From a virus: DNA of 64,000 bases. This document shows, piece by piece, positions 1,491 through 48,882 of the stretch. The first letter of the stretch is position 1. Each line of letters opens with the position of its first letter. The translations under genes and the position numbers were made by a program. The DNA lies in the IMG/VR virus record IMGVR_UViG_3300007351_000277, positions 1-64,000 of that record. One strand, 5' to 3'. A model generated the notes under the pieces. It worked only from the letters and a program-made list of their open reading frames with translations. It was not told the DNA's origin and did no database searches.

Positions 1491-3022
1491 CCACCGCGAC
1501 AGATTTCTGGACCAAAATCCAATGCGACCCCGTAGAAATGTCACGGGTCGCTAGCGAGTTGCGCAAGTGCATCGAAAGTTTCGACTACTACATGGAAAAC
1601 TACGTCTACATCCTGGATAGGCAGAAGCAGGCCAAAGTCAAGTGGCATCACTGGCCCTGCCACCGTCAGTTCGTGAAGGCAGTGCAAAGTAACAAGTTCA
1701 CCATTATCCTCAAAGCACGCCAACTAGGTATCTCGTGGATGTCGGTGGCTTATGGCCTCTGGCTTACTACGCTGCATTATGGTAGTACGGTAGCGGTGTT
1801 TTCCCAGCGTGAGGAAGAAGCATCGGACCTGCTTAACCGCGCCGAGTTCATCTACAATAACCTGCCCCCCTTTCTGCAGCCTGGCGTGAAAAAGAGGAAC
1901 GAGACCGAGTTTTCCTTCAACGATGTGGAAAGTGGCTTCAAGGCTTACCCTGCCAAGGGGAACGCTGGACGTTCGCAATCCGCGACCCTTGTGATCTGCG
2001 ACGAGTGGGCACACCATCCCGAGGCTGAGGAACAGTGGTCAGCTATGTTGCCTATCATTAACGAGGGCGATGCCAAGTTCGTTGGGGTTTCCACGGCCAA
2101 CGGCGCCGGTAACTTCTTCCACTCTACCTGGCAGGCTGCATCGGAAGGCGAGAACGACTTTACGCCTTTGTTCTTCAGTTGGCGAGCCCGTCCTGATCGT
2201 GACGAAGAATGGTACGAGCGTACCCGTAAGAATATGAAGCGTGAGTTGTTCTTGCAGGAATATCCGAACACCCCACAAGATGCGTTCCGTCAGACCGGGT
2301 CGCCATTCTTCGATGCTGAGTTTTTGAAGATTACGGCGCTGTACAGCACCCCTATACCATTTAGTCAGTTACCCCCTGATATCCAGTTGGATTCGTCGAT
2401 TCAGGTATTCATGCTGCCTAAAGCGGGGCGAAAGTATTGTATCGGGGTTGACATAGCTGAGGGCGAGCCGGGGGTAACCAAGACCGACGCTACCGATATA
2501 ACGATAGTTGACTGGGAAGCCAACACCGAGGTGCTACACCTCAATGGTCGTTGGCGAGTGGATAGGCAGGGCGAGATGATCAATGCGCTGGCACGGTTCT
2601 ACACACCCAGTGTGGTGGGGATCGAACGGAACGGTATCGGCGTGGCGGTTATCAAGAAGTGTGAGGACCTGAGCACACCAGGACTCTATCGGGATACGCC
2701 ATTACTGCGTAAGCCGGGCGAGCCTGAAAGACCCGGTAAATATGGGTGGGTTACGTCAGGTTTCAACAAGTCGGTTATGCTCGAGGACTTGGAAGAGGCA
2801 TTGCGGATGGGCTACCACCGGGTAGCCTCGCAGAAGTTCATCGACCAGGCAACGGTGTTTCAGTACCTTGGTGGTGACAAATATGGCGCGCCAAGGGGCT
2901 TCTTTGACGATGCGGTGATGAGTCGGGCTATCGCGCTGCAGATGCGCAAGCATATCCGACAGGCACCCGTGGTGGGATCGAGGGTAAGTAAGCGTAGTCC
3001 TGCCTTTGTGCAGGTTGCCTAG
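1478..3022 (+). CDS. terL: terminase large subunit
   Basis: 514 aa. Walker A-like ILKARQLGISW, Walker B-like TLVICDEWAH, and a C-terminal nuclease-like region (CIGVDIAEG, VVGIERNGIG). Confidence 0.9.
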   Translation: MARMTTATDFWTKIQCDPVEMSRVASELRKCIESFDYYMENYVYILDRQKQAKVKWHHWPCHRQFVKAVQSNKFTIILKARQLGISWMSVAYGLWLTTLHYGSTVAVFSQREEEASDLLNRAEFIYNNLPPFLQPGVKKRNETEFSFNDVESGFKAYPAKGNAGRSQSATLVICDEWAHHPEAEEQWSAMLPIINEGDAKFVGVSTANGAGNFFHSTWQAASEGENDFTPLFFSWRARPDRDEEWYERTRKNMKRELFLQEYPNTPQDAFRQTGSPFFDAEFLKITALYSTPIPFSQLPPDIQLDSSIQVFMLPKAGRKYCIGVDIAEGEPGVTKTDATDITIVDWEANTEVLHLNGRWRVDRQGEMINALARFYTPSVVGIERNGIGVAVIKKCEDLSTPGLYRDTPLLRKPGEPERPGKYGWVTSGFNKSVMLEDLEEALRMGYHRVASQKFIDQATVFQYLGGDKYGAPRGFFDDAVMSRAIALQMRKHIRQAPVVGSRVSKRSPAFVQVA

Positions 3023-3030
3023 GGGGGAAA

Positions 3031-4893
3031 ATGCCAAGGTTTGACATAAAGGACCCGTCGAGTATTGTTTCCTATGCGGACCATCTGGAAGAGTTCTACC
3101 AACCACGAAACGATACCATGGTAGACCACCAGAAACTCTATAAGCTGGACCCTACTGTGCAGGCGGGCACGGGGCATACTGCTATTACGGAAAACAATCC
3201 ATGGGTGATTGTTAACTTCGCTACATCTATCATTGCCATGCGCCCTCCGCAGCACAAGGTTCCGCTCGCGTTTGGTGCAGGCGATCACGAACTAAATGAT
3301 TACCGTTCGGCTGAACTGGAACGCTACCTCATCAGTATCTGGAATAACGTGGATAAGCAGCAGCGTTTACAGAAGCATTCCCGGTTCGATTGGGAACTGT
3401 CCTTCTACGCAGTGCTGCGAGGATGGGTCGCGGGGGTGGTAGCGTGGGACGATGAGAACCCACAGTTCCCCTTTCATATCAAACTTTGGGACCCTTACCA
3501 CGTTTATCCCGATCCCGATATCTCGGACCTGATCATCCGTCGTTATCGTCGTTCAGCCGCGTCGGTCATCGATGAGTATCCTGCGCTGGACGGCAAGATA
3601 GACGACGACAAGCATAAGGACCATGATATCATCGAGATATTTCATCGGGACAAACATGGAATACTGGTGGGCAACGAGTGGGCCAAGCCGATGACGGAAC
3701 ACGATCTGGGCAGGCCCCAGGTGATCATGATCCCCGTAGGCCCCATGCCTATTCGGTCCCTGGCGGGAAAGTACAATCGTACCGAGAGCATCAGCAGGTT
3801 GGGTGATAACTCATACACCGGTTACATGGGACAGGGCATCCTGTTTCCCGTGGTGTCAGCGCAGAAGTATCAGAACCTGCTGGCCAGCCAGATAGCGGAC
3901 CTCGTGCAGCAGTTCAGCCAGCCAGCCATCATCGTAAAAACCGATGAGGGGCAACCGGTCGATATCGAGACTACCCCCGGTGTTACCATTGGAATGAAGC
4001 CTCATGAGGGGGTGGACTTTGCGCGACCCAACACCTTCCCCCCGGACCTTATGGCTTGGATGCAGCGACAGGCTTCCATGATCGAGCGAGGGTCGTTCCC
4101 GAACGTCATGTATGGGGCCACGCCACACGAAATGTCCGCTCTGGCGCGAAGCCTGATCCATAATGCCGGCGTTATGCGTATAGAACCAGCCATTGACGCC
4201 TGTACCTTCTTCTATGAAGCTGCCGACGCTTTGATTCTGGAACAGACGGAACTGTACGCCACCGACCGAACCGTCAATATGCGGGGCACCGACTATCTCA
4301 ACAAGCCCTTTCGTGCTGTCAAAAGTCTGTGGGAAATAAAGAACCTTATCCAGAACGATTACGAAGTAGTGGTAGACAAAAAACCCTTCCTGCCCCAGGA
4401 TCGTGCAGGCAATGTTCAGATGGCAGGGATGATCAAGCAATATGGCATATGGGACAACAAGACTATCAACGATGTTCTGTTTTCTGAGGACGTACACGAC
4501 CCACAGGGGGTAGAGCAAAGGCTGATAGATGAGAAGGTACGGAACAACCCCGAGGCCATTGCGCTGTTGGCTGAGACCACTGCACCCATCACGGTATCCC
4601 GTAACCTGAGACTACAGCTCGAGCGCGGCAACATCACCCGTGAAGAGTTCAACATGGCCATGTCGATGCTGAACGTCAAGGTGGGGATCAAAATCGAAAC
4701 CGAGAGCAAGATGCTGGGCGAAGTAGCAGCGCCGGTGCCAGCGCCTAGCCAGATACTTGGACCTAGGGGGCAACCGATAAACCGGGATGAGATGTTGATG
4801 GCGCAAAGAGGGCAACCACAACAGACGCCACCGGAATTTCTATCGCCACAACTACAGGGGGCGGACTTCCCGCCCGGCATCGCAGAGGAGTAG
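3031..4893 (+). CDS. portal protein (by position and size)
   Basis: 620-aa ORF starting 9 nt after terL, with RBS GGGGGGAAAATG. Size and synteny are typical of a portal. No motif-level proof. Confidence 0.7.
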   Translation: MPRFDIKDPSSIVSYADHLEEFYQPRNDTMVDHQKLYKLDPTVQAGTGHTAITENNPWVIVNFATSIIAMRPPQHKVPLAFGAGDHELNDYRSAELERYLISIWNNVDKQQRLQKHSRFDWELSFYAVLRGWVAGVVAWDDENPQFPFHIKLWDPYHVYPDPDISDLIIRRYRRSAASVIDEYPALDGKIDDDKHKDHDIIEIFHRDKHGILVGNEWAKPMTEHDLGRPQVIMIPVGPMPIRSLAGKYNRTESISRLGDNSYTGYMGQGILFPVVSAQKYQNLLASQIADLVQQFSQPAIIVKTDEGQPVDIETTPGVTIGMKPHEGVDFARPNTFPPDLMAWMQRQASMIERGSFPNVMYGATPHEMSALARSLIHNAGVMRIEPAIDACTFFYEAADALILEQTELYATDRTVNMRGTDYLNKPFRAVKSLWEIKNLIQNDYEVVVDKKPFLPQDRAGNVQMAGMIKQYGIWDNKTINDVLFSEDVHDPQGVEQRLIDEKVRNNPEAIALLAETTAPITVSRNLRLQLERGNITREEFNMAMSMLNVKVGIKIETESKMLGEVAAPVPAPSQILGPRGQPINRDEMLMAQRGQPQQTPPEFLSPQLQGADFPPGIAEE

Positions 4894-4945
4894 ATACAGA
4901 CGGACTAAACTATAAACGAAGACCTAAACGAGGGGGTGGCTAACA

Positions 4946-5746
4946 GTGGCTACATATTATGAGGAACCGGTACCTGGTGGGGGAACGCAAACTACGCAGA
5001 CAGGAGCAGCGCCTGGGGGAACAACGATGGGCGCATATCAGCGGTGGTTGCAAGCATTCAATGCTGCACCAATAAACTGGGGGGGCATATACGACGTTTA
5101 TGAAGGACGACCAGGAACTCGACCTGGGGACGAGGGAAAAACTTACTCAGCCAAAGAAATAGCTGATTGGGAACAGAATGTGGCAAATGCTGCTTTTAGG
5201 CAGAAGATGGCAGCATCGGGGGCACAGCGCAAATTGGCACCGTGGGTACGGGCACGTATGCTAGAGGGGGTTGGCGAATCTGCCATTGCGCAGGATGACT
5301 TCTCTCGCTTGGGACAAATGTCCAAGAGGGTTCTCGGTGGTGAGGATCAGGCTGCGTTGGGCGGCACGTTGCTAAACCGGGATATGGAAACGCAGCTGCA
5401 GGGTATTTTGGCTAATTACCTTCAAGCCCAACGTGTACCTGCTGGGCAGAGGTATGCGGATAGTCGTTCTAATTTGGACAGTATACGACAGTACCTGGCA
5501 CGGGTGGACGCGGGGACAATGCCGGAAGGGGACTATGTGCCCCAGGCCATATATCAAGATCCCGCCAAGGCATTGGCCATAGCACAGATGGCGGTACGGT
5601 CCTCGGGCTATGGTAATCTCTGGGGTGATTACCTGGCACGACGTATCGCAGATTCCTATAGTGACTATATGGCTGGTGTTCGTCCTGCAGGACGTGGCGA
5701 CCTGGGCGTTGGGGAATGGCTACTGACTACAGATTGGTTGCGATGA
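4946..5746 (+). CDS. hypothetical head-module protein
   Basis: 266-aa ORF with a GTG start after GAGGGGG. No recognisable domain. Confidence 0.5.
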   Translation: MATYYEEPVPGGGTQTTQTGAAPGGTTMGAYQRWLQAFNAAPINWGGIYDVYEGRPGTRPGDEGKTYSAKEIADWEQNVANAAFRQKMAASGAQRKLAPWVRARMLEGVGESAIAQDDFSRLGQMSKRVLGGEDQAALGGTLLNRDMETQLQGILANYLQAQRVPAGQRYADSRSNLDSIRQYLARVDAGTMPEGDYVPQAIYQDPAKALAIAQMAVRSSGYGNLWGDYLARRIADSYSDYMAGVRPAGRGDLGVGEWLLTTDWLR

Positions 5747-6199: not shown

Positions 6200-9100
6200 T
6201 TGGATATCTTTGACATTCTTGAGAGTTGGGGTGAGTCCTTTAATAGGGCTCTCGATTGGGGCGAGGATGATCCTCGCCTTCACGATATCCCGACCTATAC
6301 GCCACGGGATATGGGCTATGATGGCACGCCCGAAACCGATCTCAATACTGTAAGTACACAGGACCTGTACCCTCGGGACTTCACCCCCTTCAGTGACTTT
6401 CTGTCCCAGTTAGCACCCGAGCCTGAGCCACTACCTGAACTTGAGCCAGAGTGGGTGCCCCCACAGGAAGCAGCACCCGAGCCTGTGCCTGAAATCAAGA
6501 TACCTGACTACCGGCCGTTTTCTCAGGAACCTACGGACCTTGGCGAGAAATTGTACCGTAGCATCATGAGTGGCTTCGGGGACTTCCTTGCCACATCAGC
6601 CTCAGCATCTGATCTGTTCCGTAAGGTCGTTCCGTTGCCGGAAGCACCACAGAAGCAGTTGGCCAATGCGGTGTTGGAACGCCTGGGGTTTGCACCGTTG
6701 GTCTCACAGGAATCCGTAGATATCGACGTAGCTGAGAAAACACAGGAACTGGGGGAGACCTTACGAGAAGAAAACTACGTTGAGCCTACTGAATGGACGG
6801 GATGGGAGTCACTAGCGGACCCCGAGTTTCTGGCAACCACGGGTGCCCGTAGTCTTGCTTTCGCGGCGCCCCTGATGGCTGCCAGCACCGTCGCGGCGCT
6901 AACAGCCCCGCTGTGGGTGCCAGCTGGACTTCCTGCTGGTGGCGCGGCTGCGGTATCGGTGTTGGGTGCGGTAGTGGCACCACGAGTCTTCGAGTCGCTG
7001 CTGGAAGCTGGTGGTACGTATGAGGAATCCTTGGCGCGCGGTATGAGCGATGATGAGGCTGTAGAAGCAGGAAAGAAGACCTTCATTGCCAACATGCCAT
7101 TGAGCGCACCGGATGCACTGCAGATGCTGTTGACGTTCCCCGGACTATTCAAGGCTGTACCGTTGCAGGCACGCAAGGCTGTGGTGACGAATCTCATGGG
7201 CCAGTTCGGGCAGAAGGGCGTAGGTGCTGCTAAGCTGCTGGGCGTGGCGGGTTCTGAGGCACTTGAGGAAGTAGCACAGGAAGCTATTGGCAAATGGTCG
7301 CTTGGGGACCCGGTGCAGTGGGATAAAGAGATGGAACAGGCAGCGGGCATTGGTGCGTTGCTGGGCGGTGGCATGTATGGTGGGGGCACTGCTGCACAGC
7401 GTCTTGTTAGCCAGGGTGCGCCACCGGTGGGGCTAAGCATCGAGGACGTAACCCGTGTGGACCCTAGCGAAGCGCAAAGGCAATGGAAGTCATGGCGTGC
7501 GATGATGGAGCGTGAAAATAAAGAATTTGATGTGTGGTCTTTTGGTGGGGAAGCGCCAAAACGATATCGTCCCCAAGAAACAGCACAGCTAACTCAGGAA
7601 CAGCACGAACGAGCAAGGGATACTTGGCGTAATGCGCTCATGTCAGATTTGCTGGGCGGGAAGACGGTACCAGAAAGTACAAAAGCAGAGTACATGAAGG
7701 CGCGACAGAAGCTAGAGTTTGAGGGGCGTTCCGGTAAGCCTGACAAGTCTATGAGGGAAGATTGGGGCGACCAGTATGACGAGATGGTAGATCGGGCCAA
7801 GGAATATGGTCTACCTGTGCGTGGCAAGGCTGCTCGTGCAGAGGAAGTGGCATCCCCCGTAACCACAGTTGAGGCGCCAGCGTCCTCACCCGTTCCCGAT
7901 GTTGCTGCTGGCCAGATGCCACGCTCGCCTGACTTGGCAGCGATGGAAGCAGAGACGGTGGCTAAGCAGCCTTGGGAGATGACGAGAGATGAGTGGGGCC
8001 TGAAAACAAACACACGTAAGGTTAGGTTCCAGAAAGCAAGCACAAAGGATGATGTTGTTGAGGTCTCCCCGTGGTTAGCCCTATCTAATCTGCGTGTGGG
8101 CGAGTCGTTCACTATTGGTCGAGACAAGTCTTTTACAGTCAAGTCCATTACCGATAAGACACTGACTCTTGTTGATGATAAAGGGAAGCAGTTGCGATTG
8201 GATGGATTGCCCGGCAGTCCTCGCGTCAACAGCTTCCTTCGTGATGTAGAGGACGAACTATCTATGGCCAGAACGACTCAATCGTACGAGTCAATATTCC
8301 GTCTCAATACAAAGCCCACGCCTAAGCATCCACTTCTGGTTGCACTTGAACGTGATCCGGTAATACAACACAGGGCGTTGGTAGTGCAGGCAATACGTGA
8401 AGGCAAGCCTGTTCCCCCCGAAGTGCTGGCTGACTACCCCGACCTGGCAGCGCAGTATGGCAAGGCAGAGACGGTCACGCCTACCGAGCCAGTTGCGCCC
8501 CAGCCAGAGCCAACCGTGACGCCAGCAGTCGAGACGCAGGCTGCGGAACTTCTGGACGTGACCCCCGAAGTCGCAGCAGGGGAAGAGGTGGAAGCGACAG
8601 GTGCTGCACCATTGGCACACAAGTATTGGCCGGTATGGGAACCAGTTCCTGGGCGCAAACCGTGGCGCATTCGAGACATGGAAACGGGTGAAAATATTAG
8701 GAACAAGAGCGGGAATGTGCTTGCCTTTGAGAGTGACGAGAAGGCATCCGAGCATCGCGACAAGATTGAGGCTACGTGGCGCAAGCAGCAGGGAATTGAT
8801 ATCCCGACAAACGAGCCACTGCCTGAATATGCCGAGTGGCAGAAGATGCAGCAGGCTGCTGGTGAGCCAGTCCCCACCGGAACAGCCCCAGAAGTAACCA
8901 GCGCAATTCCCGAAGGTGGCCAGCCTACTTCAGTCCAATTGGCTGCAGCAAGCGAGGCGCGCCCTGCGCCTGACTTGACACCAGAGCCTATAACGCGGCA
9001 AGAGCCTGTGGGTACGATTGATTCTGGTCAAGCTACGACCCGACCGATGGCAGAAGATGTTTCGTTGCCAGTGGACCTGCAGGGTGCCAAGCCTACATAC

Positions 9101-12100
9101 CGTTATGGCGACACGCAGTTTGACATAACGTTTGAGTCAGATGTCGATAAGGCACTTTACATCGTGCAAGACGCTGGGAAAAGCAAGTCGGATGCTAAGT
9201 ACATGACGTATTTGCGTGAGCGATTTTCCGGCCTTGACGATACTGCGATTCGGGACATGGGACGTACTCTTCGGGATAGCGTGATCAAGCCAATTGCGCA
9301 AGAGGCGCGCAAGACGGATGTGTCCGAACTGACGGTGCCACGCACCTATGCTGCTGAGCCTGTCTCGCCACCTATCATCGAGCCTGCCCCGACCTTGCCC
9401 TCGGTAGAAGAGGCAATGCCAGAGACGGTGACCGAGCCCGTGCCAACAGAAGTGACGCAGCCTGTACCTGAACTACCACAAGAACCAACGCCAGAGGAAC
9501 GCAAGGCGGCAAGGGATGCCCTGTTTGAGGAAGATACTGCTGCAGCTGGTAAGCCAGACGCACCGGCGGATTACTATGCTAAGGCGCTGGATTGGGCCAA
9601 GGCCGATGAGGACGCAACACCATTCCTGCCTAGACTGGTTAGTGCCTATCCCAACCTGAGCGATAAGCAGGTAGCGGATATCGTTAGAGAGAAGCAGGTC
9701 ATTAACAACGTGCCAGCGATGGACGTTACGCAGAAAGCGGGACGTGGGCGAAGGATCACGCAGACGCCAGCAAAGATCAACGACCCCCAGCCAGTGTTGA
9801 CCAAGGTGGACATTGACAATGCGCAGGAGACGGTAGACAATGCAGCCCCCTTTGGTAATCGGACCCATATTACGGCAGGGCTGGACGCTACCCTGATAGC
9901 GCCTAGCAAGCCATTGCTTACCAGGGTACGGGACTTCTTCTGGAACCTGAATGAAAAGTTCTTCTGGCAGGACACGTGGCTGAGCGAGCTTGAGAAAAAG
10001 GGAAAGCGAAGCCAGAAGGACCTTGCCCTTATCAATCTGGACCTTATTCCCCAGTCTGCTCTCGATATGGCTGCGGATATGGCATCGAAAGGCGTGGTGG
10101 ACGCTGGAAAGATCGCCAAGGCGTTTCCTCAACTGATTCCCCAGCAGGTCGATGCGCTGGTACAGCACTTCACAGTGAAATTGCCAGCAGAAGCGGTTGC
10201 CCGACGGACCGTGCAGCGTGGTGCAGCCAACGCTGCTGAGCGCTATCTGTCCAAGGTTGGTGGCTATATCGAACTGCTGAAAAACATACCGACGGATATT
10301 CGGGACGCACTGGATGTGTACCTGATCGCAATGGACCAAGTGGACAAGGCTGCCATCAAAAACAATCCCGACCGAAACTGGTCCTGGGGTACGGACCCCG
10401 CGCTTATCGAAAAGACCATCGACGAGCTCATCATGGGCGTGCCCGAAAGAACCGCGCAGACGATCCTGGCTCAATTGGAACCGATCCTGGGAAGTGATAT
10501 CTTTCGCCAGATGGACCAACGGGCGCTGATTGCCAAAGTAGGAAAGCCTCTTGGTGCTGACGGACTGGCAGAGGTCAAGAGGCTGGCAAACCAGCTATAC
10601 CGAATGAAGAACGAAATGCTGGAACTGAAGTACGAGACTGGTCTTATTACCAAAGAGCAGTACGATTTCTTCCATGACAACTTCCCTCACTATTCACCCA
10701 TACGGATTACCAACTACCTCAAGCAAGCGTCTGAGGGGAATCCCAAGGGGGTTACGGTTAAGAGCAATCTGATCCAGCATCTGACCGACGAGGGTACGCA
10801 GAAATCCCAAATGAGTGCGCTACAGGCATATTCCGAGATGGTACACCAGACCTTTAGTCTGGTGATGAGAAACCGAACGGCACGTGAGATAGCACGGCTG
10901 CGCTTTATGCCTGGTACGGAAGCGATAGTCAAGGAAGTTCCCATCGAGTATCAAGTGCAGGAAGGTACCAAAGAAGCCGAGTTCTACGTATTCGAGAATG
11001 GCATACGCAAGAAGATGCTGGTAATACCCGAGTGGGCCAAGGCTATTCGGATGGACGACTATGTCTTGTCGGGCGGGATGGCTACATTGGCGAAGTGGCT
11101 TGTTAGTCCCCTCAAGTGGGGCGCTACCGGTGCCAACGTGTTGTTTCTGCAGCGCAACATGATTGGCGACATGCTGACCGGATTTGTGCGTGAGGGGGTC
11201 ACGCCACGCCAGTACATGCAGGCAGTTCGGGATGTGTTTGGTAAGCAGGTGTACCTGACACAATTCGAGTTGGGCGGTGGTGGCCTTGGTGGGCATGGCT
11301 ACCACAAGTTTGACAGTATCCCTGACGAAGCCAGGGCGTTCAAGCAGTCAGTTACCAGGCTCAGTACCAAGGAAGCTCTAGCCAAGTTCATACAGGATAT
11401 GGTGACGCTCAAGCCGGTGCAGGATATAGGGCACAAGGTCGAGATGCTAACCAGAGTAGCAACGTTCATGAAGCGCTTGACCCCCGAGCAGCGAGCAGCT
11501 ATCGAGAATGGTACCATGAAAATACTGGACATTCCGGTCGAGGCTGTGGTGGCGGGCAAACGGGTGACGATGGACTTCCAGCGTGGGGGTACGGGAGCTT
11601 TGGTTCTCAACCGTTTCATACCATACTTCAACGTAGCATTTCAGGCACCGGTGCAGATCGTTCGCACCTTTACCGAGCAATCAGGACCAGTAGGCGCAAC
11701 GCTTCGGTTGGCAGCAATCGTCGGATTACCGGTTCTGCTGGCTGAGATATGGAACAGTATGTTCGATGAGTACGAGGACGTGCCTCAGTACGTGAAGAAC
11801 CGGTCTGCCATCATCATGATGCCTTCACCGGGGAAGGACCGTTTTGGTAAGGCTGTACCGGCCTACGTCGAGATACCGTTGCGTGAGTGGGCACCAGTGG
11901 GGATGACGATTCGAGAGTCTCTACGGTCCATACGTAAAGAAAACCCGGAAATGTGGCGTGATATGGTGGCGCAGACTCTGCGTGACCAACTGGGCGACGA
12001 GCGGTTTGCGCCAGTGGATAGGCTGGCCGAGGGCTGGCGCAACATGATTCCACCGGACCGAACCGAAACAGCCCTGAATGCTATCAGCGCCATCAATCCT

Positions 12101-14449
12101 GTTCAAGGTAGCTCGCTGGATAGTGCCATTATTGGTATCCTGCCGCCTATCTTGGGAACGTATTTTGAGATTCTTCTGAATAGGGACCTGTATCGTAACC
12201 GAGAGATCGTGCCGGATGATCGGAAGTATCTGCCACGTCCCGAGCAGTACACGCAGTGGACAGGTGAGTTTGCGATCCTGATGGGCAAGCAACTCAATAT
12301 GTCGCCAGCGCAGATTGAGCATCTTGTGATGGGCAACCTCGCTGGTGTGGGCAAGCAGATACTGGCTGGGGCTAACCTGGCAACACAACAACTTGTGCCT
12401 GTCAACAAGGGAACGGTGCAACCACGTGCTGGGGATTCTATATTTGCCTACTGGGTGCCAAAGGACGGGGACCCTGAATACTACACAAAGGACAAGGTTC
12501 CCGAAATAAGAATTAAGGCTGAGGCTGGTGAGGGTGCCTTGTACGTCGTATCGGCCAAGGACCGAGACGAAGCTGTATCCAAGGTCTACTCTAAGGACTT
12601 CCTGCATACCTACGGGGTAGAGACGCCTATCACGACCTTCCCGATAGTCGGTGGTATGGTAGGGGTGTTGTACCGAACCGGTGGGGGTGAGATTGACCGA
12701 CGTGCAAAAGAGGCAGTAGATCAAGAGATGGGTGAGGGTACGGTTGCGGAAACCCGACGTGGATGGGAATCTGCACGTCCCAAGCTGGATGAACTGAAAG
12801 CTGAGCAGATCAAGCTGGACGATAAGCTGTCAGCAGCGCTTATTAGCGTAGATGAATGGAAGCAGGAACGTCGTTTTCTGCAGACAAAGAGGGCTGCAAC
12901 TCTTGAAGCCATACAAGCAGTGCTGAGAAGGGCTGCGCTAACGGGTGATAAGGCTGCAATGTACAAGGAACTGCACGCCACCGTTGGTCGGGCGATTCCC
13001 GATAGGCGAGATCGAATCGAGGCGATGACGGCACTCTACATGGCGATAGAGCCAGGGGTACGTGATGACAATGAGCCGGACCTGGATGCTTTCTATGTTG
13101 CACGCAACGAGTTTCTGACGTCACTACCTGCTGCTGATCAGGAACTGGTCAAGGCGCAGTTGCGCAAGAATGCGACCCCTACTGAGTTGCGCTACTACGA
13201 GGCGCAGGACCTGTACCGACAGTATCTGCAGATACCACGTTACAAAGGGGTGGCTAGTGCCGAGAAAGCAGACGCTATGTACCAAGCACGTCGTAGGCTT
13301 GAGGAAATCGAGAACACCCTTCCGACCAATACCCCTAATCGTCGCTTGGTGGCACTGGACGCCTTGTCCAAAGTAGACGCCAGTGTTGCGTCGTTGGCCC
13401 GTGACGCATTCTTGCAGCAGGACAACTTGGATCGACGGAAGTTCTGGGATGATCATCCCTTGATGACCGAGTGGTTTGGGAAGGGCGTAACCGATAAGCC
13501 TGGACTCGCTACTGTATCGGTAGCTACCACGCTAGCGGGTCTACCCAAAGATACAGGGATCGTGCAGGCCAACGTCTACAATCAGTACCGGAACGAACTA
13601 GCTCGCCAAGAGAACGAATACTATGGGGGTGGCAGCGAGCAGGTACAGCAGCTAGTAACTGACTATGGTGCCCTGAGTACCGAACAACGAACGGCGTATC
13701 GGAAGGCGAATCCCGAAGAATACAAACTGGTTCAGTCAGAGTACGATAGGCGAGCCAAGTTGCTGGAACGTCCTGAGTTTGCTCTGTATGCTCGCTTTAT
13801 TCAGTTCCGTGACAGCATGGGGGATTACGATACCCGTAAGTTGGTGGAAAAGTTTGGAAGCAAGGATGCCAAAGAGATATTCCTGAGTGCGCTGATATCG
13901 GGTGACATTAAGCCAACGTGGGCTACGGGTACTGTGGCCTCGACGGAAGGTGCAGCAAAGCCTGCTACCACGACGACCACACGTACCACAACGACGACAG
14001 CAAAGGCTACCACTGCGTCGACGACAAAGACGACGACAACAGCGCCCAAGGTAGCCACAGCCAAGGCACCACTTACGCGTGCCGATCTGGTGGGTCAACG
14101 TACAGGGACGACTCGGCGTGACATATTCTTCACGTCGGATGGTAAGTTACGTCGGGACGTGGTGGTACGACCCGGTCTTCTGCCCGTGGCGCCACCAAAA
14201 CCAGGACGGTTTATAGCACCTGTACGAGAAGGCGCACCCTTCGACGAGACGCCGTATACCGGACCGGATAAGGAATGGGCCAAGGATTTTGAAAAGATAC
14301 ATGGTCGTCGTCCGACCTGGCTTGATTACGAGGATAGGCTTTGGTCGCTTGACTTCCTAGCTAAAAACAAAAGGCCACCCACTGACGCAGAATGGCGCGA
14401 GCAATACGGACTAAAATATCAACAGATACCGGTTAGGCTAAATGTCTGA
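6200..14449 (+). CDS. giant 2749-aa virion-associated (internal/ejection or polyvalent-type) protein
   Basis: Uninterrupted 8.25 kb ORF between portal and scaffold. It has an N-terminal acidic/Pro-rich region, a hydrophobic Ala/Gly-rich membrane-like block (SLAFAAPLMAASTVAALTAPLWVPAGLPAGGAAAVSVLGAVVAP) and several PE/PT-rich linkers. Near the C terminus there is a Thr-rich tract and then a ~60-aa module shared with the next gene. No catalytic motif recognised. Confidence 0.75.
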   Translation: MDIFDILESWGESFNRALDWGEDDPRLHDIPTYTPRDMGYDGTPETDLNTVSTQDLYPRDFTPFSDFLSQLAPEPEPLPELEPEWVPPQEAAPEPVPEIKIPDYRPFSQEPTDLGEKLYRSIMSGFGDFLATSASASDLFRKVVPLPEAPQKQLANAVLERLGFAPLVSQESVDIDVAEKTQELGETLREENYVEPTEWTGWESLADPEFLATTGARSLAFAAPLMAASTVAALTAPLWVPAGLPAGGAAAVSVLGAVVAPRVFESLLEAGGTYEESLARGMSDDEAVEAGKKTFIANMPLSAPDALQMLLTFPGLFKAVPLQARKAVVTNLMGQFGQKGVGAAKLLGVAGSEALEEVAQEAIGKWSLGDPVQWDKEMEQAAGIGALLGGGMYGGGTAAQRLVSQGAPPVGLSIEDVTRVDPSEAQRQWKSWRAMMERENKEFDVWSFGGEAPKRYRPQETAQLTQEQHERARDTWRNALMSDLLGGKTVPESTKAEYMKARQKLEFEGRSGKPDKSMREDWGDQYDEMVDRAKEYGLPVRGKAARAEEVASPVTTVEAPASSPVPDVAAGQMPRSPDLAAMEAETVAKQPWEMTRDEWGLKTNTRKVRFQKASTKDDVVEVSPWLALSNLRVGESFTIGRDKSFTVKSITDKTLTLVDDKGKQLRLDGLPGSPRVNSFLRDVEDELSMARTTQSYESIFRLNTKPTPKHPLLVALERDPVIQHRALVVQAIREGKPVPPEVLADYPDLAAQYGKAETVTPTEPVAPQPEPTVTPAVETQAAELLDVTPEVAAGEEVEATGAAPLAHKYWPVWEPVPGRKPWRIRDMETGENIRNKSGNVLAFESDEKASEHRDKIEATWRKQQGIDIPTNEPLPEYAEWQKMQQAAGEPVPTGTAPEVTSAIPEGGQPTSVQLAAASEARPAPDLTPEPITRQEPVGTIDSGQATTRPMAEDVSLPVDLQGAKPTYRYGDTQFDITFESDVDKALYIVQDAGKSKSDAKYMTYLRERFSGLDDTAIRDMGRTLRDSVIKPIAQEARKTDVSELTVPRTYAAEPVSPPIIEPAPTLPSVEEAMPETVTEPVPTEVTQPVPELPQEPTPEERKAARDALFEEDTAAAGKPDAPADYYAKALDWAKADEDATPFLPRLVSAYPNLSDKQVADIVREKQVINNVPAMDVTQKAGRGRRITQTPAKINDPQPVLTKVDIDNAQETVDNAAPFGNRTHITAGLDATLIAPSKPLLTRVRDFFWNLNEKFFWQDTWLSELEKKGKRSQKDLALINLDLIPQSALDMAADMASKGVVDAGKIAKAFPQLIPQQVDALVQHFTVKLPAEAVARRTVQRGAANAAERYLSKVGGYIELLKNIPTDIRDALDVYLIAMDQVDKAAIKNNPDRNWSWGTDPALIEKTIDELIMGVPERTAQTILAQLEPILGSDIFRQMDQRALIAKVGKPLGADGLAEVKRLANQLYRMKNEMLELKYETGLITKEQYDFFHDNFPHYSPIRITNYLKQASEGNPKGVTVKSNLIQHLTDEGTQKSQMSALQAYSEMVHQTFSLVMRNRTAREIARLRFMPGTEAIVKEVPIEYQVQEGTKEAEFYVFENGIRKKMLVIPEWAKAIRMDDYVLSGGMATLAKWLVSPLKWGATGANVLFLQRNMIGDMLTGFVREGVTPRQYMQAVRDVFGKQVYLTQFELGGGGLGGHGYHKFDSIPDEARAFKQSVTRLSTKEALAKFIQDMVTLKPVQDIGHKVEMLTRVATFMKRLTPEQRAAIENGTMKILDIPVEAVVAGKRVTMDFQRGGTGALVLNRFIPYFNVAFQAPVQIVRTFTEQSGPVGATLRLAAIVGLPVLLAEIWNSMFDEYEDVPQYVKNRSAIIMMPSPGKDRFGKAVPAYVEIPLREWAPVGMTIRESLRSIRKENPEMWRDMVAQTLRDQLGDERFAPVDRLAEGWRNMIPPDRTETALNAISAINPVQGSSLDSAIIGILPPILGTYFEILLNRDLYRNREIVPDDRKYLPRPEQYTQWTGEFAILMGKQLNMSPAQIEHLVMGNLAGVGKQILAGANLATQQLVPVNKGTVQPRAGDSIFAYWVPKDGDPEYYTKDKVPEIRIKAEAGEGALYVVSAKDRDEAVSKVYSKDFLHTYGVETPITTFPIVGGMVGVLYRTGGGEIDRRAKEAVDQEMGEGTVAETRRGWESARPKLDELKAEQIKLDDKLSAALISVDEWKQERRFLQTKRAATLEAIQAVLRRAALTGDKAAMYKELHATVGRAIPDRRDRIEAMTALYMAIEPGVRDDNEPDLDAFYVARNEFLTSLPAADQELVKAQLRKNATPTELRYYEAQDLYRQYLQIPRYKGVASAEKADAMYQARRRLEEIENTLPTNTPNRRLVALDALSKVDASVASLARDAFLQQDNLDRRKFWDDHPLMTEWFGKGVTDKPGLATVSVATTLAGLPKDTGIVQANVYNQYRNELARQENEYYGGGSEQVQQLVTDYGALSTEQRTAYRKANPEEYKLVQSEYDRRAKLLERPEFALYARFIQFRDSMGDYDTRKLVEKFGSKDAKEIFLSALISGDIKPTWATGTVASTEGAAKPATTTTTRTTTTTAKATTASTTKTTTTAPKVATAKAPLTRADLVGQRTGTTRRDIFFTSDGKLRRDVVVRPGLLPVAPPKPGRFIAPVREGAPFDETPYTGPDKEWAKDFEKIHGRRPTWLDYEDRLWSLDFLAKNKRPPTDAEWREQYGLKYQQIPVRLNV

Positions 14450-17535: not shown

Positions 17536-17883
17536 ATGACTCTGCAGTCCTATGATGCTTTAACATCTGAACAGCGTGTTTACTACGATAGCCTGCTGCT
17601 GGACCGGGCAATCCCCAAACTGGCATTCGCCAACTATGGGGTGAAGCGTCCTATTCCCGCTAACATGGGTGATAGGATCAACTTCCGAAGGGTAGAGCTT
17701 ATCAGCGCTGCCCCCTCGTCCATCACGGCGTTGACCGAGGGCACAGCGGGCGCAAAGGCTACACCGTCTATCAGCAATCTGACCGCCACTGTTTCACAGT
17801 ACGGTCGGTGGATTGAAATAACGGACAAGCTAGAGGATCAGGCTATCGACCAGGTGCTTAGCGAGTACACAGCGATGTTGGGT
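17536..17883 (+). CDS. major capsid protein, exon 1 (116 codons)
   Basis: RBS AAGGAGGTG then ATG 17536. MTLQSYDALTSEQRVYYDSLLLDRAIPKLAFANYG...INFRRVELISAAP...VSQYGRWIEITDKLEDQAIDQVLSEYTAMLG has an HK97-fold capsid N-terminal pattern. The frame hits a stop 8 codons after GGT 17881-17883. Confidence 0.85.
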
Positions 17884-17941
17884 AGTTCCAGAAGTTTGCC
17901 CAACTAAAATCTCTTCTAGATAACGGGAACGGCTGAGATGC

Positions 17942-18406
17942 TTACCCGATGCAAGGTTCTTTGACAAGTGAATAGCGACCGTTGAGACGCCGCATCTCGA
18001 CAAAACATTCATATCGGAAGGCTCTTATTTGGGGGCTTAGTGGCATAATCTGGCCATTGGACTTGTGAGTCAAAGGGCCAAAGGAATCACGAAATCGCAG
18101 GGCCAATTCCAATTGGGCTTTCTTGATGATGATATAAGGCAACACGGCGTTGCATAGTTGATCAAAGAGGCGTCGCTCGACAATCCATTCGTATTTGGTT
18201 TTCCACCCCGAACGAGTTTCTCGTTTGTACTGTAAACCACCAAAAGTGGTTTGAAGCCAGTCAATCAGAATCTTATCGGTAGAGACCACGTAGATACGAA
18301 TACTATAGTCGGTCCTTGGATACTTCCCGCTACGGTAGATATTGATGCACCCTTCGCCATCAATGATACCAGCGAGATAGGCCAACTGGGAAACGGTCCA
18401 GCACAT
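17942..18406 (-). CDS. LAGLIDADG homing endonuclease, single-motif type
   Basis: Track ORF is 17942..18448. The motif LAYLAGIIDGEGCINIY lies near the N terminus. The start is probably ATG 18406 (MCWTVSQ) after AAAGGGG. Antisense to the capsid gene and intron. Confidence 0.85.
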   Translation of the reverse strand: MCWTVSQLAYLAGIIDGEGCINIYRSGKYPRTDYSIRIYVVSTDKILIDWLQTTFGGLQYKRETRSGWKTKYEWIVERRLFDQLCNAVLPYIIIKKAQLELALRFRDSFGPLTHKSNGQIMPLSPQIRAFRYECFVEMRRLNGRYSLVKEPCIG

Positions 18407-18438
18407 AAGATACACCCCTTTCATTGTGTCTGAGACTA

Positions 18439-18467
18439 AGTGTATCACTATAGTGTTAACTTGTCAA
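18439..18467 (-). promoter_or_regulatory. sigma70-like promoter for HEG-1 (TTGACA-N17-TACACT on the - strand)
   Basis: The reverse complement reads TTGACAagttaacactatagtgaTACACT. The -35 is formed by the 3' strand of the stem that closes the HEG-1 loop. Confidence 0.5.
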
Positions 18468-18580
18468 TACCGGCAGCAGAGACTAAACGAAGAGACACCG
18501 AAAGGTGAAGCGATAGTCCGATCTTATGGGAAATGAACCGTAAGAGCCAGGCAGAAATGGCCTGGACGCACCTTAACAAT

Positions 18581-19351
18581 CTACTTGACTTTATATAGCA
18601 TCGATGGTGCCCAATAGGGTGCCATGATGTCCATCAACCTACGTGCATCGGAACCATAGAAGGTAACTCGATAACCCCCCTCACGCAAAAAGCGTAGGTG
18701 GGAATTCAGCCCATATGTTTTCCGAAACCAGTCTTGGATTGAATGCTGGACAGATTCGGGCCAAAGGCCAGTACAAAAGTAAAAGCCTTTGTCAAAGGTC
18801 CCAGACCCATCATCCATAAACCAGACTGCTAAAGAACGTGGGGTCAATTGCTGAAGTGCCTTTAGTGTGGGGACCTTGCCATCATCACACATAAACAACT
18901 TGAATGGCGTAAAGAGGTCAGAATGCACACAGGTGCGAAAACGCACGGAGCCAGCATTGATAATCACCCTGCCCTGACAGACAGTAGTTCGAGGAGCGTA
19001 ATGCTCAAGTTTGCCAGGAAAAGGCTGTAGTTGGCTATGAAGCCACAGAACATACCCTTCCTGATTGGCGCCATGCTCAATTGATAAGGATGGCCAGCGA
19101 CACCGAGTTGGGATGGCCAGGGAGCCATCACCCATCAGTTTTCCATATACGATTTCGAGTTGTTGCTGTGAGAATGGGGTTTGCTGGGCAGTAGTAAGGG
19201 GATAGCCCCTGCAGGGAATGGCATAGCGATGCAAGTAGGTGTAAACATCACCGTACTTGCGAGTGAGTGCCTTAGTTGACAATCCGAGATCAACATACTC
19301 GTGATACAACTCTTCCTTGGTCGGTGTTAATGTGGTTTTTGGTCGGCCCAT
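18581..19351 (-). CDS. LAGLIDADG homing endonuclease, double-motif type
   Basis: Track ORF is 18581..19372. The start is probably ATG 19351 (MGRPKTT) after GAGGAAG. Two motifs are present: YGKLMGDGSLAI and AVWFMDDGSGT. Antisense to the intron. Confidence 0.85.
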   Translation of the reverse strand: MGRPKTTLTPTKEELYHEYVDLGLSTKALTRKYGDVYTYLHRYAIPCRGYPLTTAQQTPFSQQQLEIVYGKLMGDGSLAIPTRCRWPSLSIEHGANQEGYVLWLHSQLQPFPGKLEHYAPRTTVCQGRVIINAGSVRFRTCVHSDLFTPFKLFMCDDGKVPTLKALQQLTPRSLAVWFMDDGSGTFDKGFYFCTGLWPESVQHSIQDWFRKTYGLNSHLRFLREGGYRVTFYGSDARRLMDIMAPYWAPSMLYKVK

Positions 19352-19371
19352 ATCTTCCTCTATTTTCGCCA

Positions 19372-19400
19372 AGCATAGCAGAAAATGAGGAGTAAGTCAA
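19372..19400 (-). promoter_or_regulatory. sigma70-like promoter for HEG-2 (TTGACT-N17-TATGCT on the - strand)
   Basis: The reverse complement reads TTGACTtactcctcattttctgcTATGCT. The -35 again lies in the 3' strand of the loop-closing stem. Confidence 0.5.
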
Positions 19401-19426
19401 GTAGGTTGCGGTGAGGTAACAGATTG

Positions 19427-19948
19427 GATCAGGCTGGGGTAGATGTGGACACAGTGGTACGTGATGTACTAACTGCGGGCACGTCTATCCAGTTTGCCTC
19501 AACCGCTATCTCTCGTGGCCAGGTGGGGTCGGGCATGTTGTTCAACTCGGCAGAGATCAGGGAAGTTCTACGGACTATGCGTCGAAACAACGCAAATCCT
19601 GTGGAGGACGATAAGTATATCGCTTTCGTTCATCCAGACACCTGGTCGGACCTGTTGAGCGATACCGACTTCAAGAGCTTCGGGCAGCACGCACAGCCGC
19701 GTGATACCACGAACGTTCTGTCCCATGCTAACACAGTGGATTACCTTGGTATCCGGTTCGTCATGACGAGTCGGGCCACGATTCATGCGTCGCTGGGTCT
19801 GTCTGGCGCTGATGTTTACTCGACCGTGGTGGTGGGTGACCAGGCTTATGGTGTTTCCGAACTGGAGACTCAGAACCTGCGAATCTACTTCAAGCCACGG
19901 GGATCGGGTGGAACCGGTGACCCAATAGACCAGATCAGCACGCTGGGT
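19427..19948 (+). CDS. major capsid protein, exon 2 (174 codons)
   Basis: DQAGVDVDTVVRDVLTAGTSIQFAS...YIAFVHPDTWSDLLSD...GIRFVMTSRA...VYSTVVVGDQAYGVSEL...KPRGSGGTGDPIDQISTLG. There is no plausible start or RBS of its own. It continues exon 1 in phase 0. Confidence 0.85.
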
Positions 19949-20196
19949 AAAGTGATAGTAGTAATACTTGTAGCCCAGCTAAAACCTGTCAAATTCAGGG
20001 AAAGTCCCTATAGGGGGATAATCCTGAGCCAAGGCCAGCTTTATGGCTGGCAAGGTGCAACGACTAGACGGCAGGGACTCGGTTTACTGAACTGAGTCAA
20101 GGTATAGTCTGAACTCACGAGTAATCGTGAGAGGTGGCAGAAATGGCCACCCGCCTATTCAGGTGGATGCCTGTTAGGTCCATAAGTAACAGAACG
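19949..20196 (+). mobile_element. group I intron 2 (248 nt, no ORF)
   Basis: P1: exon GCTGGGT (19942-19948) pairs with guide GCCCAGC (19973-19979). Core strings are GTCAAATTCAGGGAAAGTCCC (19988-), GAGCCAAGG, GACTAGACGGCA (20062-20073) and AAGGTATAGTC. These closely resemble my recollection of the Azoarcus/Anabaena tRNA group I introns. It ends GTAACAGAACG. Confidence 0.85.
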
Positions 20197-20283
20197 TACA
20201 AGTGTGCATTTGCTGCACGTATCCTCAACGACAACTTCATGTTGCGTGTTGAGCACGTGACCACAGCAAAGCAGGCGGCATAA
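20197..20283 (+). CDS. major capsid protein, exon 3 (28 codons plus stop)
   Basis: Hand translation gives YKCAFAARILNDNFMLRVEHVTTAKQAA*. There is no start codon. It joins exon 2 in phase 0 after the omega-G at 20196. The spliced product is 318 aa. Confidence 0.7.
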   Translation, partial: YKCAFAARILNDNFMLRVEHVTTAKQAA

Positions 20284-48471: not shown

Positions 48472-48882
48472 TACCTTTTCAGCAGCCTCTGGTGAGGTGT
48501 AGTTCAGGGTTACTTCGATGGTTAATCGGGTGGTTGTGGGTTCAAGTCCCGCCACATACGTAACCCGTATGTGTAGCTCAATTGGTAGAGCACCTACGTG
48601 CCTTGAGCGCTTCTTCCTCACCTGATGACCTGCATACTCTGGTTTGTAAAGCAGTGATGCCAGGTCAGATTTTAATGCCTCAGCCAGATTGCAAACGGTG
48701 CTGATACGTGCATTGCCCCCACGCCTGCCCCGCTCTAGACGTGAGATTACCGATTGATCCACTTTGGCTTTTGCCGCTAACTGCCCCTGCGACCAGCCCC
48801 GTGCTAATCTCAATTCCCTTAAGACTGATCCGTCAAGCCTTACGTCTGTTTTGTGGGCGTTGATGCTTCCCCCTTGAAACAT
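48427..48882 (-). CDS. XRE-family HTH repressor-like protein (C-terminal extent doubtful)
   Basis: The N-terminal part LRELRLARGWSQGQLAAKAKVDQSVISRLERG is a classic cI/XRE HTH. The last ~70 codons run antisense through RNA module C and part of module B, and may be fortuitous. Confidence 0.65.
   Translation of the reverse strand: MFQGGSINAHKTDVRLDGSVLRELRLARGWSQGQLAAKAKVDQSVISRLERGRRGGNARISTVCNLAEALKSDLASLLYKPEYAGHQVRKKRSRHVGALPIELHIRVTYVAGLEPTTTRLTIEVTLNYTSPEAAEKVSEEETTKVRVKSAN
48491..48622 (+). ncRNA. YrlA-like RNA (module C) with a circularly permuted tRNA mimic
   Basis: Terminal stem GGTGAGG/CCTCACC. T-arm GTGGG-TTCAAGT-CCCGC (48536-48552). Loop-closed acceptor-like hairpin CACATACG-TAACC-CGTATGTG (48553-48573). 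D-arm TA-GCTC-AATTGGTA-GAGC-A (48574-48592). The order T-arm, closed acceptor, D-arm is the architecture described for bacterial YrlA. Confidence 0.65.

Follow-up and report, generated by a model that had tools for sequence, protein, structure and literature searches.

The locus described here is the major capsid protein gene of an uncultured virus (IMG/VR record IMGVR_UViG_3300007351_000277), which lies on the plus strand in three coding segments separated by two inserts. We analyzed positions 1 to 64,000 of that record; this 64,000-nt stretch is called the window, and all coordinates refer to it unless another contig is named. Both inserts belong to one family of group I introns, and the longer one carries two LAGLIDADG genes on the opposite strand. 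The gene is organized as follows:

17536-17883, plus strand: capsid exon 1, residues 1-116, starting at ATG 17536 and ending in GTTGGGT, the P1 5' strand, with U at -1
17884-19426, plus strand: intron 1, a 1543-nt group I intron with ribozyme pieces at 17884-17969, 18459-18589 and 19396-19426, ending in GTAACAGATTG with the omega G at 19426
19427-19948, plus strand: capsid exon 2, residues 117-290, ending in GCTGGGT
19949-20196, plus strand: intron 2, a 248-nt group I intron without an open reading frame (ORF), with P3-P9 plus P9.1, ending in GTAACAGAACG
20197-20283, plus strand: capsid exon 3, residues 291-318 and the stop codon (28 codons plus stop)

The original prediction for this locus, a single capsid gene in three exons with two group I introns between them, had placed the exons at exactly these positions, and they proved correct. 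The length of each exon is a multiple of 3, and joining them in phase 0 yields a coding sequence (CDS) for 318 amino acids (aa), with junctions G116/D117 (MLG/DQAG) and G290/Y291 (STLG/YKCAFA). In the joined DNA, ATGTTGGGT is followed by GATCAGGCT at junction 1 and ACGCTGGGT by TACAAGTGT at junction 2; the intron-less sites 1 and 2 read ACAGCGATGTTGGGTGATCAGGCTGGGG and AGCACGCTGGGTTACAAGTGTGCATTT, respectively. The start codon at 17536 is preceded by a ribosome binding site (RBS), AAGGAGGTG. Past G116 (17883) the exon 1 frame runs for 7 more codons (SSRSLPN*) and ends at TAA 17905-17907, that is, at the eighth codon, as had been predicted. Exon 3 has no plausible start codon of its own.

The joined product matched Pfam Phage_capsid_4 (PF25209; N4-gp56) with E = 7.9e-12. 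Its uninterrupted homologues, about 317 aa long, number more than 200; several are named 'N4-gp56 family major capsid protein', and the best homologue is 71% identical over 100% of the length. The homologue alignment runs without gaps across both exon junctions, and the residues on either side of site 2, G290 and K292, do not vary across an alignment of 115 capsid sequences. An AlphaFold2 model built from this 115-sequence alignment (predicted local distance difference test, pLDDT, 86; predicted template modelling score, pTM, 0.80) places site 1 within one long helix (107-132) and site 2 within one beta-strand (286-299). The top Foldseek matches of the model were podophage capsids with the HK97 fold, including that of N4 (template modelling score 0.7-0.79, E 1e-18 to 1e-16). 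A search of PDB sequence profiles with the capsid alignment gave no match, and the fold search was needed. The gene stands in a module of terminase, portal, giant-protein and capsid genes, and no second capsid gene was found in the 64,000-nt window. The three segments are one gene for a major capsid protein of HK97 fold, the sole one in the window.

Two further observations concern the surroundings of this gene. A 2749-aa ORF (6200-14449, plus strand) lies between the portal and capsid regions and may encode a giant virion protein of N4 type; its sole match was phrog_14770, a family of unknown function (E = 4.3e-12). In addition, a public 186-aa gene call on a JGI contig (P0014), in the 19559-20095 region of the window, matches part of exon 2 with 100% identity before continuing into intron 2. 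The automated annotation of the source contig therefore split the capsid gene.

Three explanations for the interruptions other than group I introns were rejected. An assembly artefact was dismissed because the junctions are exact, in frame and at conserved residues. An intein was excluded because insert 1 has an in-frame stop after 7 codons and insert 2 after 48, and because the long ORFs of insert 1 lie on the opposite strand. A group II intron was discarded because no group II Rfam model matched anywhere in the window, either at the gathering threshold or at E <= 0.1, and because the ORFs encode LAGLIDADG proteins and not a reverse transcriptase.

Intron 2 was identified by the Rfam group I model RF00028 with 86.3 bits (E = 1.4e-20), above the gathering threshold of 50 bits. 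The model aligned its P1-P2 part onto exon sequence, while the true P1 pairs GCUGGGU with GCCCAGC. The intron extends beyond the end of the Rfam model by two more hairpins, to 20196. Two of its elements are:

19973-19979, plus strand: guide sequence GCCCAGC of intron 2, pairing over 7 bp with the exon sequence GCTGGGT at 19942-19948, with a terminal U-G, and followed by TAAAA
20133-20151, plus strand: P9.1 of intron 2, GGTGGC-AGAAATG-GCCACC

The pairing scheme put forward earlier was borne out at both inserts. Both 5' exons end in GGGT, and GCCCAAC (17898) and GCCCAGC (19973), each followed by TAAAA, complement the respective exon ends over 7 bp with a terminal U-G. The ending GTAACAGAWYG is likewise present in both, and the last intron nucleotide is the G of ...GATTG/GAT for intron 1 and of ...GAACG/TAC for intron 2. 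All four core motifs claimed for intron 2 were found in its sequence. Intron 2 is a minimal ribozyme that contains no ORF. The exon 2 frame had been said to turn into junk after 19948, but there is no immediate break at that position: the frame stays stop-free for 48 codons into intron 2 (19949-20095), and ribosomes could traverse P3-P8. In frame +1, intron 2 opens with four consecutive stops, TGA TAG TAG TAA (19951-19962). Intron 1, by contrast, has its in-frame TAA 7 codons in, inside the TAAAA that follows the guide sequence.

Relatives of the joined exons in viral contigs led to other interrupted copies of the capsid gene. One of them, L007 (IMGVR_UViG_3300021495_000006, 2750-5090), has at least five inserts, all of which share a GGCAGAAATGRCC hairpin and a AGTAACAGA tail, and Rfam found only one of them. 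The signature of hairpin plus tail occurs in at least 119 stretches of viral contigs. Evidence for the family consists of a sequence profile and explicit counting of base pairs. Its 3' domain comprises J6/7-P7 (GAGACUA), J8/7 (AUAGUC), P9, P9.1 (GGCAGAAAUGNCC) and the 3' end GUAACAGAnnG, and is found in both introns of the window. RNAalifold recovered P4, P5, P7, P9 and P9.1 from a 46-sequence family alignment. With P3 as the pseudoknot partner, 93% of the cells in the family alignment were paired, compared to 32-40% in slid controls, and P7 reached 99%. Compensatory changes were seen in 28 of 31 family pairs, and the observed values were reached by 0 of 500 shuffles. Intron 2 scored 115.6 bits against the family profile with insert 1 left out, keeps 41 of the 41 alignment columns conserved at >=90%, and forms 23 of 25 family pairs, the two non-pairs being a gap or the alignment edge in P9.1.

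The original prediction had also recognized an Azoarcus-type core in intron 2. In agreement with this, the family profile aligned with the Azoarcus IC3 intron at 30.7 bits over profile positions 17-116, and gave no alignment with the Tetrahymena IC1 intron. The family core is in these terms IC3-like, a match of this kind being no formal subgroup assignment, and the extra P9.1 and P9.2 hairpins of the family are not part of the Azoarcus intron.

The capsid introns of L007 deserve a brief description of their own. One ends at about 2854, and the others lie at 3036-3692, 3772-4000, 4201-4460 and 4789-5012; two of them carry sense-strand LAGLIDADG ORFs. The L007 intron at site 1 of the window has an ambiguous last nucleotide (...GATCA/GAACAG), where the reading frame needs A and not G.

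Standard searches detect this family poorly. At its gathering threshold RF00028 overlaps only 3 of 23 full-length family introns without ORFs (20 loci, L012-L122). The covariance-model check suggested earlier succeeded for intron 2 and produced no match (E <= 10) for intron 1; its corollary, that absence of a hit refutes the reading, would wrongly reject insert 1. Given the detection rate of RF00028, the absent Rfam match is therefore no evidence against insert 1. BLASTN searches of cultured phages with the complete region, intron 2 or the intron 1 core gave four short matches or none; BLAST is too insensitive for this RNA. The family is present in a cultured phage. In Ralstonia phage BOESR1 (L127, OR367448.1, 284-2716) the annotation gives the terminase large subunit as a pair of separate CDS that flank one labelled 'homing endonuclease'. 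The family profile matched on both sides, at 1533-1619 and 2191-2232, and these flanking matches therefore indicate that a group I intron of this family has gone unannotated here.

Insert 1 contains the same type of ribozyme in three pieces, with the following elements:

17898-17904, plus strand: guide sequence GCCCAAC of intron 1, pairing over 7 bp with exon positions 17877-17883 (GTTGGGT), with U-G at the splice site
17910-17969, plus strand: 5' domain, based on minimum free energy (MFE) and centroid folds and on family pairs
17910-17916, plus strand: P3 5' strand, TCTCTTC
17924-17927 with 17945-17948, plus strand: P4, CGGG/CCCG
17931-17933 with 17940-17942, plus strand: P5, GGC/GCT
17950-17952, 17955-17957 and 17961-17969, plus strand: P6/P6a 5' strands, the last being TTGACAAGT
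18459-18589, plus strand: catalytic core piece, with the P6a/P6 3' strands at 18459-18475
18481-18485 with 18514-18518, plus strand: P7, GACTA with TAGTC
18489-18495, plus strand: P3 3' strand, GAAGAGA, a perfect 7 bp with TCTCTTC
18496-18507, plus strand: P8, CACC-GAAA-GGTG
18523-18529 with 18538-18544, plus strand: P9
18547-18565, plus strand: P9.1, CCAGGC-AGAAATG-GCCTGG
18581-18589, plus strand: P9.2 5' arm, CTACTTGAC
19396-19426, plus strand: 3' piece, with the P9.2 3' arm GTCAAGTAG at 19396-19404, then the family 3' motif GGTAACAGATTG, whose final nucleotide is the omega G

Several lines of evidence place insert 1 in the family. A profile made from 4 other introns matched 18476-18562 (E = 3.4e-5), and one made from 15 other introns, insert 1 excluded, matched 18476-18572 with 32.4 bits (E = 1.4e-8). 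When the ORFs were deleted, insert 1 scored 38.2 bits against the family profile, whereas none of 300 dinucleotide shuffles exceeded 3.5 bits. The ORF-deleted insert pairs standardly at 24 of the 25 family consensus pairs supported by covariation, and 40 of 42 family columns conserved at >=90% are retained. Replacing each ORF loop with GAAA gave a 256-nt RNA that folds alone into the group I layout, P3-P9.2, at -89.7 kcal/mol (z = -6.2); 0 of 200 shuffles folded as well. Insert 1 has no Rfam match because its core is broken by insertions of 489 and 806 nt, the loops that hold the two LAGLIDADG ORFs. Each ORF is bracketed by a perfect 9-bp stem, TTGACAAGT (17961) with ACTTGTCAA (18459) for the first and CTACTTGAC (18581) with GTCAAGTAG (19396) for the second.

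The length of insert 1 (1543 nt) and its two unrelated endonuclease genes, each with its own flanking 9-bp inverted repeat, could suggest a twintron or a set of tandem mobile elements in place of one ribozyme with two loop insertions. We rejected the twintron and regard any such arrangement as extremely improbable. The insert has a single set of core elements, with one guide sequence and one each of P3, P4, P7, P8, P9 and P9.1, and the profile gave one core match in it. Moreover, after removing both ORF loops the three pieces are collinear with single introns.

It could also be argued that insert 1 is a decayed or non-splicing insertion, made of endonuclease cassettes and ribozyme remnants, and that the capsid is built from separately translated fragments, similar to the split NrdA of Aeromonas phage Aeh1, or that the genome is defective. 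Endonuclease insertions that split genes without splicing are documented (PMC7344957), and the missing Rfam match of insert 1 would fit such a case. A start for exon 2 would also be at hand. The original prediction held that exon 2 resumes without start or RBS, which is not strictly so, as a possible start, TTG 19424, is preceded by GGTGAGG; however, both belong to the conserved 3' motif of the intron. We consider this explanation very unlikely. The core of insert 1 is intact: 40/42 positions and 24/25 pairs are kept, and guide sequence, U at -1 and omega G are all present. Separate translation would leave exon 3 with its 28 codons and no start. Breaks at sites 1 and 2 would fall inside a long helix and a beta-strand of the HK97 fold, and the window holds no other capsid gene. 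The preferred interpretation remains an intron-split capsid gene.

Intron 1 carries two homing endonuclease genes (HEGs) that the original prediction did not mention, both on the minus strand, with candidate promoters:

17942-18448, minus strand: HEG1, single-motif LAGLIDADG (LAGIIDGEG) in the P6 loop; mechanical ORF of 168 aa
18581-19372, minus strand: HEG2, double-motif LAGLIDADG_2 (GKLMGDGSL, WFMDDGSG) in the P9.2 loop; mechanical ORF of 263 aa
18439-18467, minus strand: candidate HEG1 promoter, TTGACA-17-TACACT with TG before the -10, 10/12 matches, a consensus match only
19372-19400, minus strand: candidate HEG2 promoter, TTGACT-17-TATGCT with TG before the -10, 9/12 matches, a consensus match only

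HEG1 matched Pfam LAGLIDADG_1 with 24.7 bits (cut-off 23.1) and HEG2 matched LAGLIDADG_2 with 77.7 bits (cut-off 25; E = 1.3e-21). LAGLIDADG enzymes with one motif are of the homodimer type, and those with two of the monomer type. Weak PDB sequence matches were obtained to I-MsoI, I-CvuI and I-AniI for HEG1 and to I-SceI for HEG2. From the positions of the candidate promoters, the likely starts are therefore ATG 18406 (AAGGGG 8 nt upstream) or ATG 18424 for HEG1, and ATG 19351, behind GAGGAAG, for HEG2. The 3' end of HEG1 overlaps the complement of P4'/P6. Since both genes lie on the strand opposite to the capsid gene, they cannot be translated from the capsid pre-mRNA. The candidate -35 box of HEG1 is the complement of the P6a 3' arm, and that of HEG2 lies in the complement of the P9.2 3' arm. 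Each of the 9-bp stems that close the loops (17961-17969/18459-18467 and 18581-18589/19396-19404) holds a minus-strand TTGAC, the candidate -35 box.

Gene orientation was taken from tblastn, as a census of longest ORFs undercounts antisense genes in AT-rich loci. Inserted ORFs across the family are mostly sense-oriented. The closest HEG1 relatives (33-42% identity; L125, L107, L083, L042, L037, L051, L068 and L071) are also antisense and adjoin the 3' core of the intron on its 5' side, whereas more distant relatives are sense-oriented; the antisense orientation of HEG1 is therefore a lineage trait. HEG2 relatives were at most 30% identical, and all 25 of the adjoining family-intron matches shared the strand of the endonuclease. 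In L246 (992-1894), a distant capsid gene has an intron of about 900 nt at site 1 of the window with a sense HEG2-like ORF (24% identity, E = 8e-11), which starts right behind the J6/7-P7 region, after AGGAG.

Another reading is that the introns splice but the HEGs are passengers without activity, or act outside homing, for instance as maturases or as weapons against co-infecting phages similar to the PhiPA3 intron endonuclease. Antisense HEGs are not expressed from the capsid transcript, HEG2 has an orientation atypical among its relatives, and an intron endonuclease acting in phage competition is documented (PMC11620839). On the other hand, both ORFs are intact with the acidic residues of their motifs present, and promoter-like sites and RBS-like sequences are found upstream of both. 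The HEG1-type antisense layout is conserved across about 8 loci with 33-42% identity, which implies that the protein is under selection. A passenger or non-homing role is unlikely in our judgment, though far from negligible.

The original prediction described the two introns as duplicates. They are homologous, but the duplication did not stand: introns 1 and 2 of the window share 48% identity and rank 36th or 24th of 45 among each other's relatives. Insert 1 groups with introns whose J3/4 is of TGATTGAC type and whose short P5 has a TGARAT loop (L082, L123, L072 and L107), and insert 2 with those of AAATTC type (L099, L007c and L097). By sequence, the two introns are homologues from different sub-lineages that arrived separately, and are not recent duplicates.

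Family introns interrupt 6 of the 57 loci that have a related capsid gene, in one case at least five times, and certain sites recur: introns follow residue 91 in five loci, and residue 116 (site 1 of the window) in L007 and L246. Site 2 is occupied only in the window among the 57 loci, and the nearest L007 intron is 9 nt downstream. The closest syntenic alleles (L129-L131) are uninterrupted and keep the Gly codon at both sites. A metagenome scan for close relatives of the capsid found only proteins of at most 36% identity. In one of the syntenic contigs (L131), the uninterrupted capsid allele encodes a 69% identical protein, the family intron profile has no match, and a gene with a faint LAGLIDADG_3 match (2288-3097, minus strand) lies two genes downstream of the capsid, between plus-strand genes.

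It is thus very probable that two group I introns, both from one large family carried by phages, interrupt the sole major capsid gene of this phage and that their excision yields the 318-aa capsid, with two antisense LAGLIDADG genes housed in intron 1. This central part of the original prediction is supported by Rfam, the family profile, the gapless junctions and the HK97 fold. A late pre-mRNA would be transcribed through both introns, and the guide sequences would pair with the exon ends, GUUGGGU with GCCCAAC and GCUGGGU with GCCCAGC, presenting a U-G at each cleavage site. Each ribozyme is expected to self-splice in a guanosine-dependent manner, by two guanosine-initiated transesterifications, with the exons ligated after the terminal G. 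Splicing would restore G116/D117 and G290/Y291. Intron 1 would be a ribozyme of the same type from another sub-lineage, in which two LAGLIDADG genes colonised the P6 and P9.2 terminal loops on the opposite strand. HEG1 and HEG2 are probably expressed from their own promoters, with candidate -35 boxes in the loop-closing stems. By analogy with other LAGLIDADG enzymes, they may cleave intron-less capsid alleles of co-infecting relatives at specific sites, and repair would copy the intron (homing).

A number of observations speak against this interpretation or temper it. The DNA is a metagenomic contig, and splicing of these two copies is deduced from their sequences. A permissive Rfam search of insert 1 (17800-19500, E <= 10) detected no intron signal, only a chance match to Ysr197. 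P5 of intron 1 has only 3 bp and its 5' domain was missed by the sequence profile, and a convincing P10 was not seen for either intron. Ribosomes reading 48 codons into intron 2 could disturb folding of the ribozyme. The promoter scan was not significantly enriched (8 sites versus 3.7 +/- 2.5 expected), and the sigma-70 consensus may not be the phage's own. Finally, the antisense HEG2, with relatives that are all sense, could be a dead-end insertion.

A more ambitious proposal would make intron 1 a mobility hub. Two unrelated LAGLIDADG genes would be kept in antisense loops, with -35 boxes in the closing stems. One enzyme would home intron 1 at site 1, while the other would either act in trans on site 2 to mobilise intron 2 (collaborative homing) or target endonuclease-free copies of the intron. 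This scenario is speculative and we rate it as improbable.

One other feature of the window should be mentioned. A Y RNA-like stretch (YrlA, RF02553) at 48503-48624 on the plus strand fell short of the gathering score of 69, with 41.1 bits (E = 9.4e-8 in a 501-nt stretch), and has a tRNA-like module (GUUGUGGGUUCAAGUCCCGCC; GUAGCUCAAUUGGUAGAGC). ARAGORN called no tRNA anywhere in the 64,000-nt window.

Essential phage genes with one to several self-splicing group I introns are well known from T4 (td, nrdB and nrdD) and from Twort and SPO1 relatives. In the Jug jumbo phages there are 18.5 introns per genome, many of them small and ORF-less (about 206 nt), and their splicing was confirmed by metatranscriptomes (PMC12880540). 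The introns of all these phages reside mostly in DNA-metabolism or terminase genes, and their endonucleases are typically HNH or GIY-YIG enzymes encoded in sense. More than half of the viral introns in a recent database are of subtype IA2 (PMC11835236). The family described here resembles the IC3 tRNA introns (Azoarcus tRNA-Ile, cyanobacterial tRNA-Leu) in its compact P3-P8 core and its short P4-P6 without P5abc. However, those introns are located in tRNA anticodon loops, lack endonuclease genes and end soon after P9, whereas the family of the window resides in protein-coding phage genes and has the extra P9.1/P9.2 hairpins and a GUAACAGA tail.

RF00028 misses one of the two introns of the window and about 87% of the full-length family members. 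Since Rfam overlooks most of the family, intron-split structural genes in viral metagenomes are therefore probably under-counted, and phage classification based on the capsid can fail on genes split in this way. The locus is also a further well-resolved case pointing to tolerance of several ribozymes in the late gene that a phage expresses most highly. It could serve as a compact model for antisense endonuclease expression from within a ribozyme, and for one intron supplying mobility to another.

An endonuclease gene antisense to its host intron has a precedent in I-DirII, which is encoded within a ribosomal DNA group I intron of Didymium iridis and has its own promoter (PMC3073962). That system is eukaryotic and nuclear, with an RNA polymerase II promoter, a spliceosomal intron, a poly(A) tail and a His-Cys box enzyme; the window presents a phage setting with LAGLIDADG enzymes and two genes. 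More than one LAGLIDADG gene per intron, of single- and double-motif types, is found in fungal mitochondrial group I introns, where several non-overlapping genes were called surprising and previously unreported (Selles Vidal et al., 2025, PMC11835236). These introns are mitochondrial, and gene orientation is not discussed there. A limited literature search turned up no report of a phage intron that carries two endonuclease genes in antisense.

The closest known counterpart is the intron in capsid gene 13 of LittleE, a Cluster J mycobacteriophage, whose splicing was established by reverse transcription PCR (RT-PCR) and N-terminal protein sequencing, and for which a bottom-strand LAGLIDADG-like ORF was reported (Pope et al., 2013, PMC3706429). 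With this documented example, and 6 of 57 related capsid loci interrupted, the original statement that such an arrangement is uncommon was overstated. We found that the LittleE intron (L128, 3888-4093) belongs to the same RNA family (60 bits, E = 8.4e-19, family profile), and that LittleE gp14 is 30% identical to HEG1 over 73 aa (E = 1.8e-9). Because this family member splices in vivo, it supports the splicing competence of the family. In both systems an intron interrupts the major capsid gene and carries an antisense LAGLIDADG-type ORF, the 5' splice site is preceded by U, and the intron ends in G. They differ in that LittleE has one intron, with one endonuclease gene placed after GAGTCAGGC (P9.1 loop), whereas the window has two introns, one of them ORF-less and the other with two different antisense LAGLIDADG genes in P6 and P9.2. 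Their hosts also differ: LittleE is a temperate Mycobacterium siphovirus and the window derives from an uncultured podovirus-like phage with an N4-gp56-type capsid, the two capsids being unrelated in sequence. The locus represents a mobile element of a kind already known, in elaborate form, and not a new kind, and its value lies in the double-antisense architecture, in the breadth of a family mostly missed by standard models, and in the annotation of viral metagenomes.

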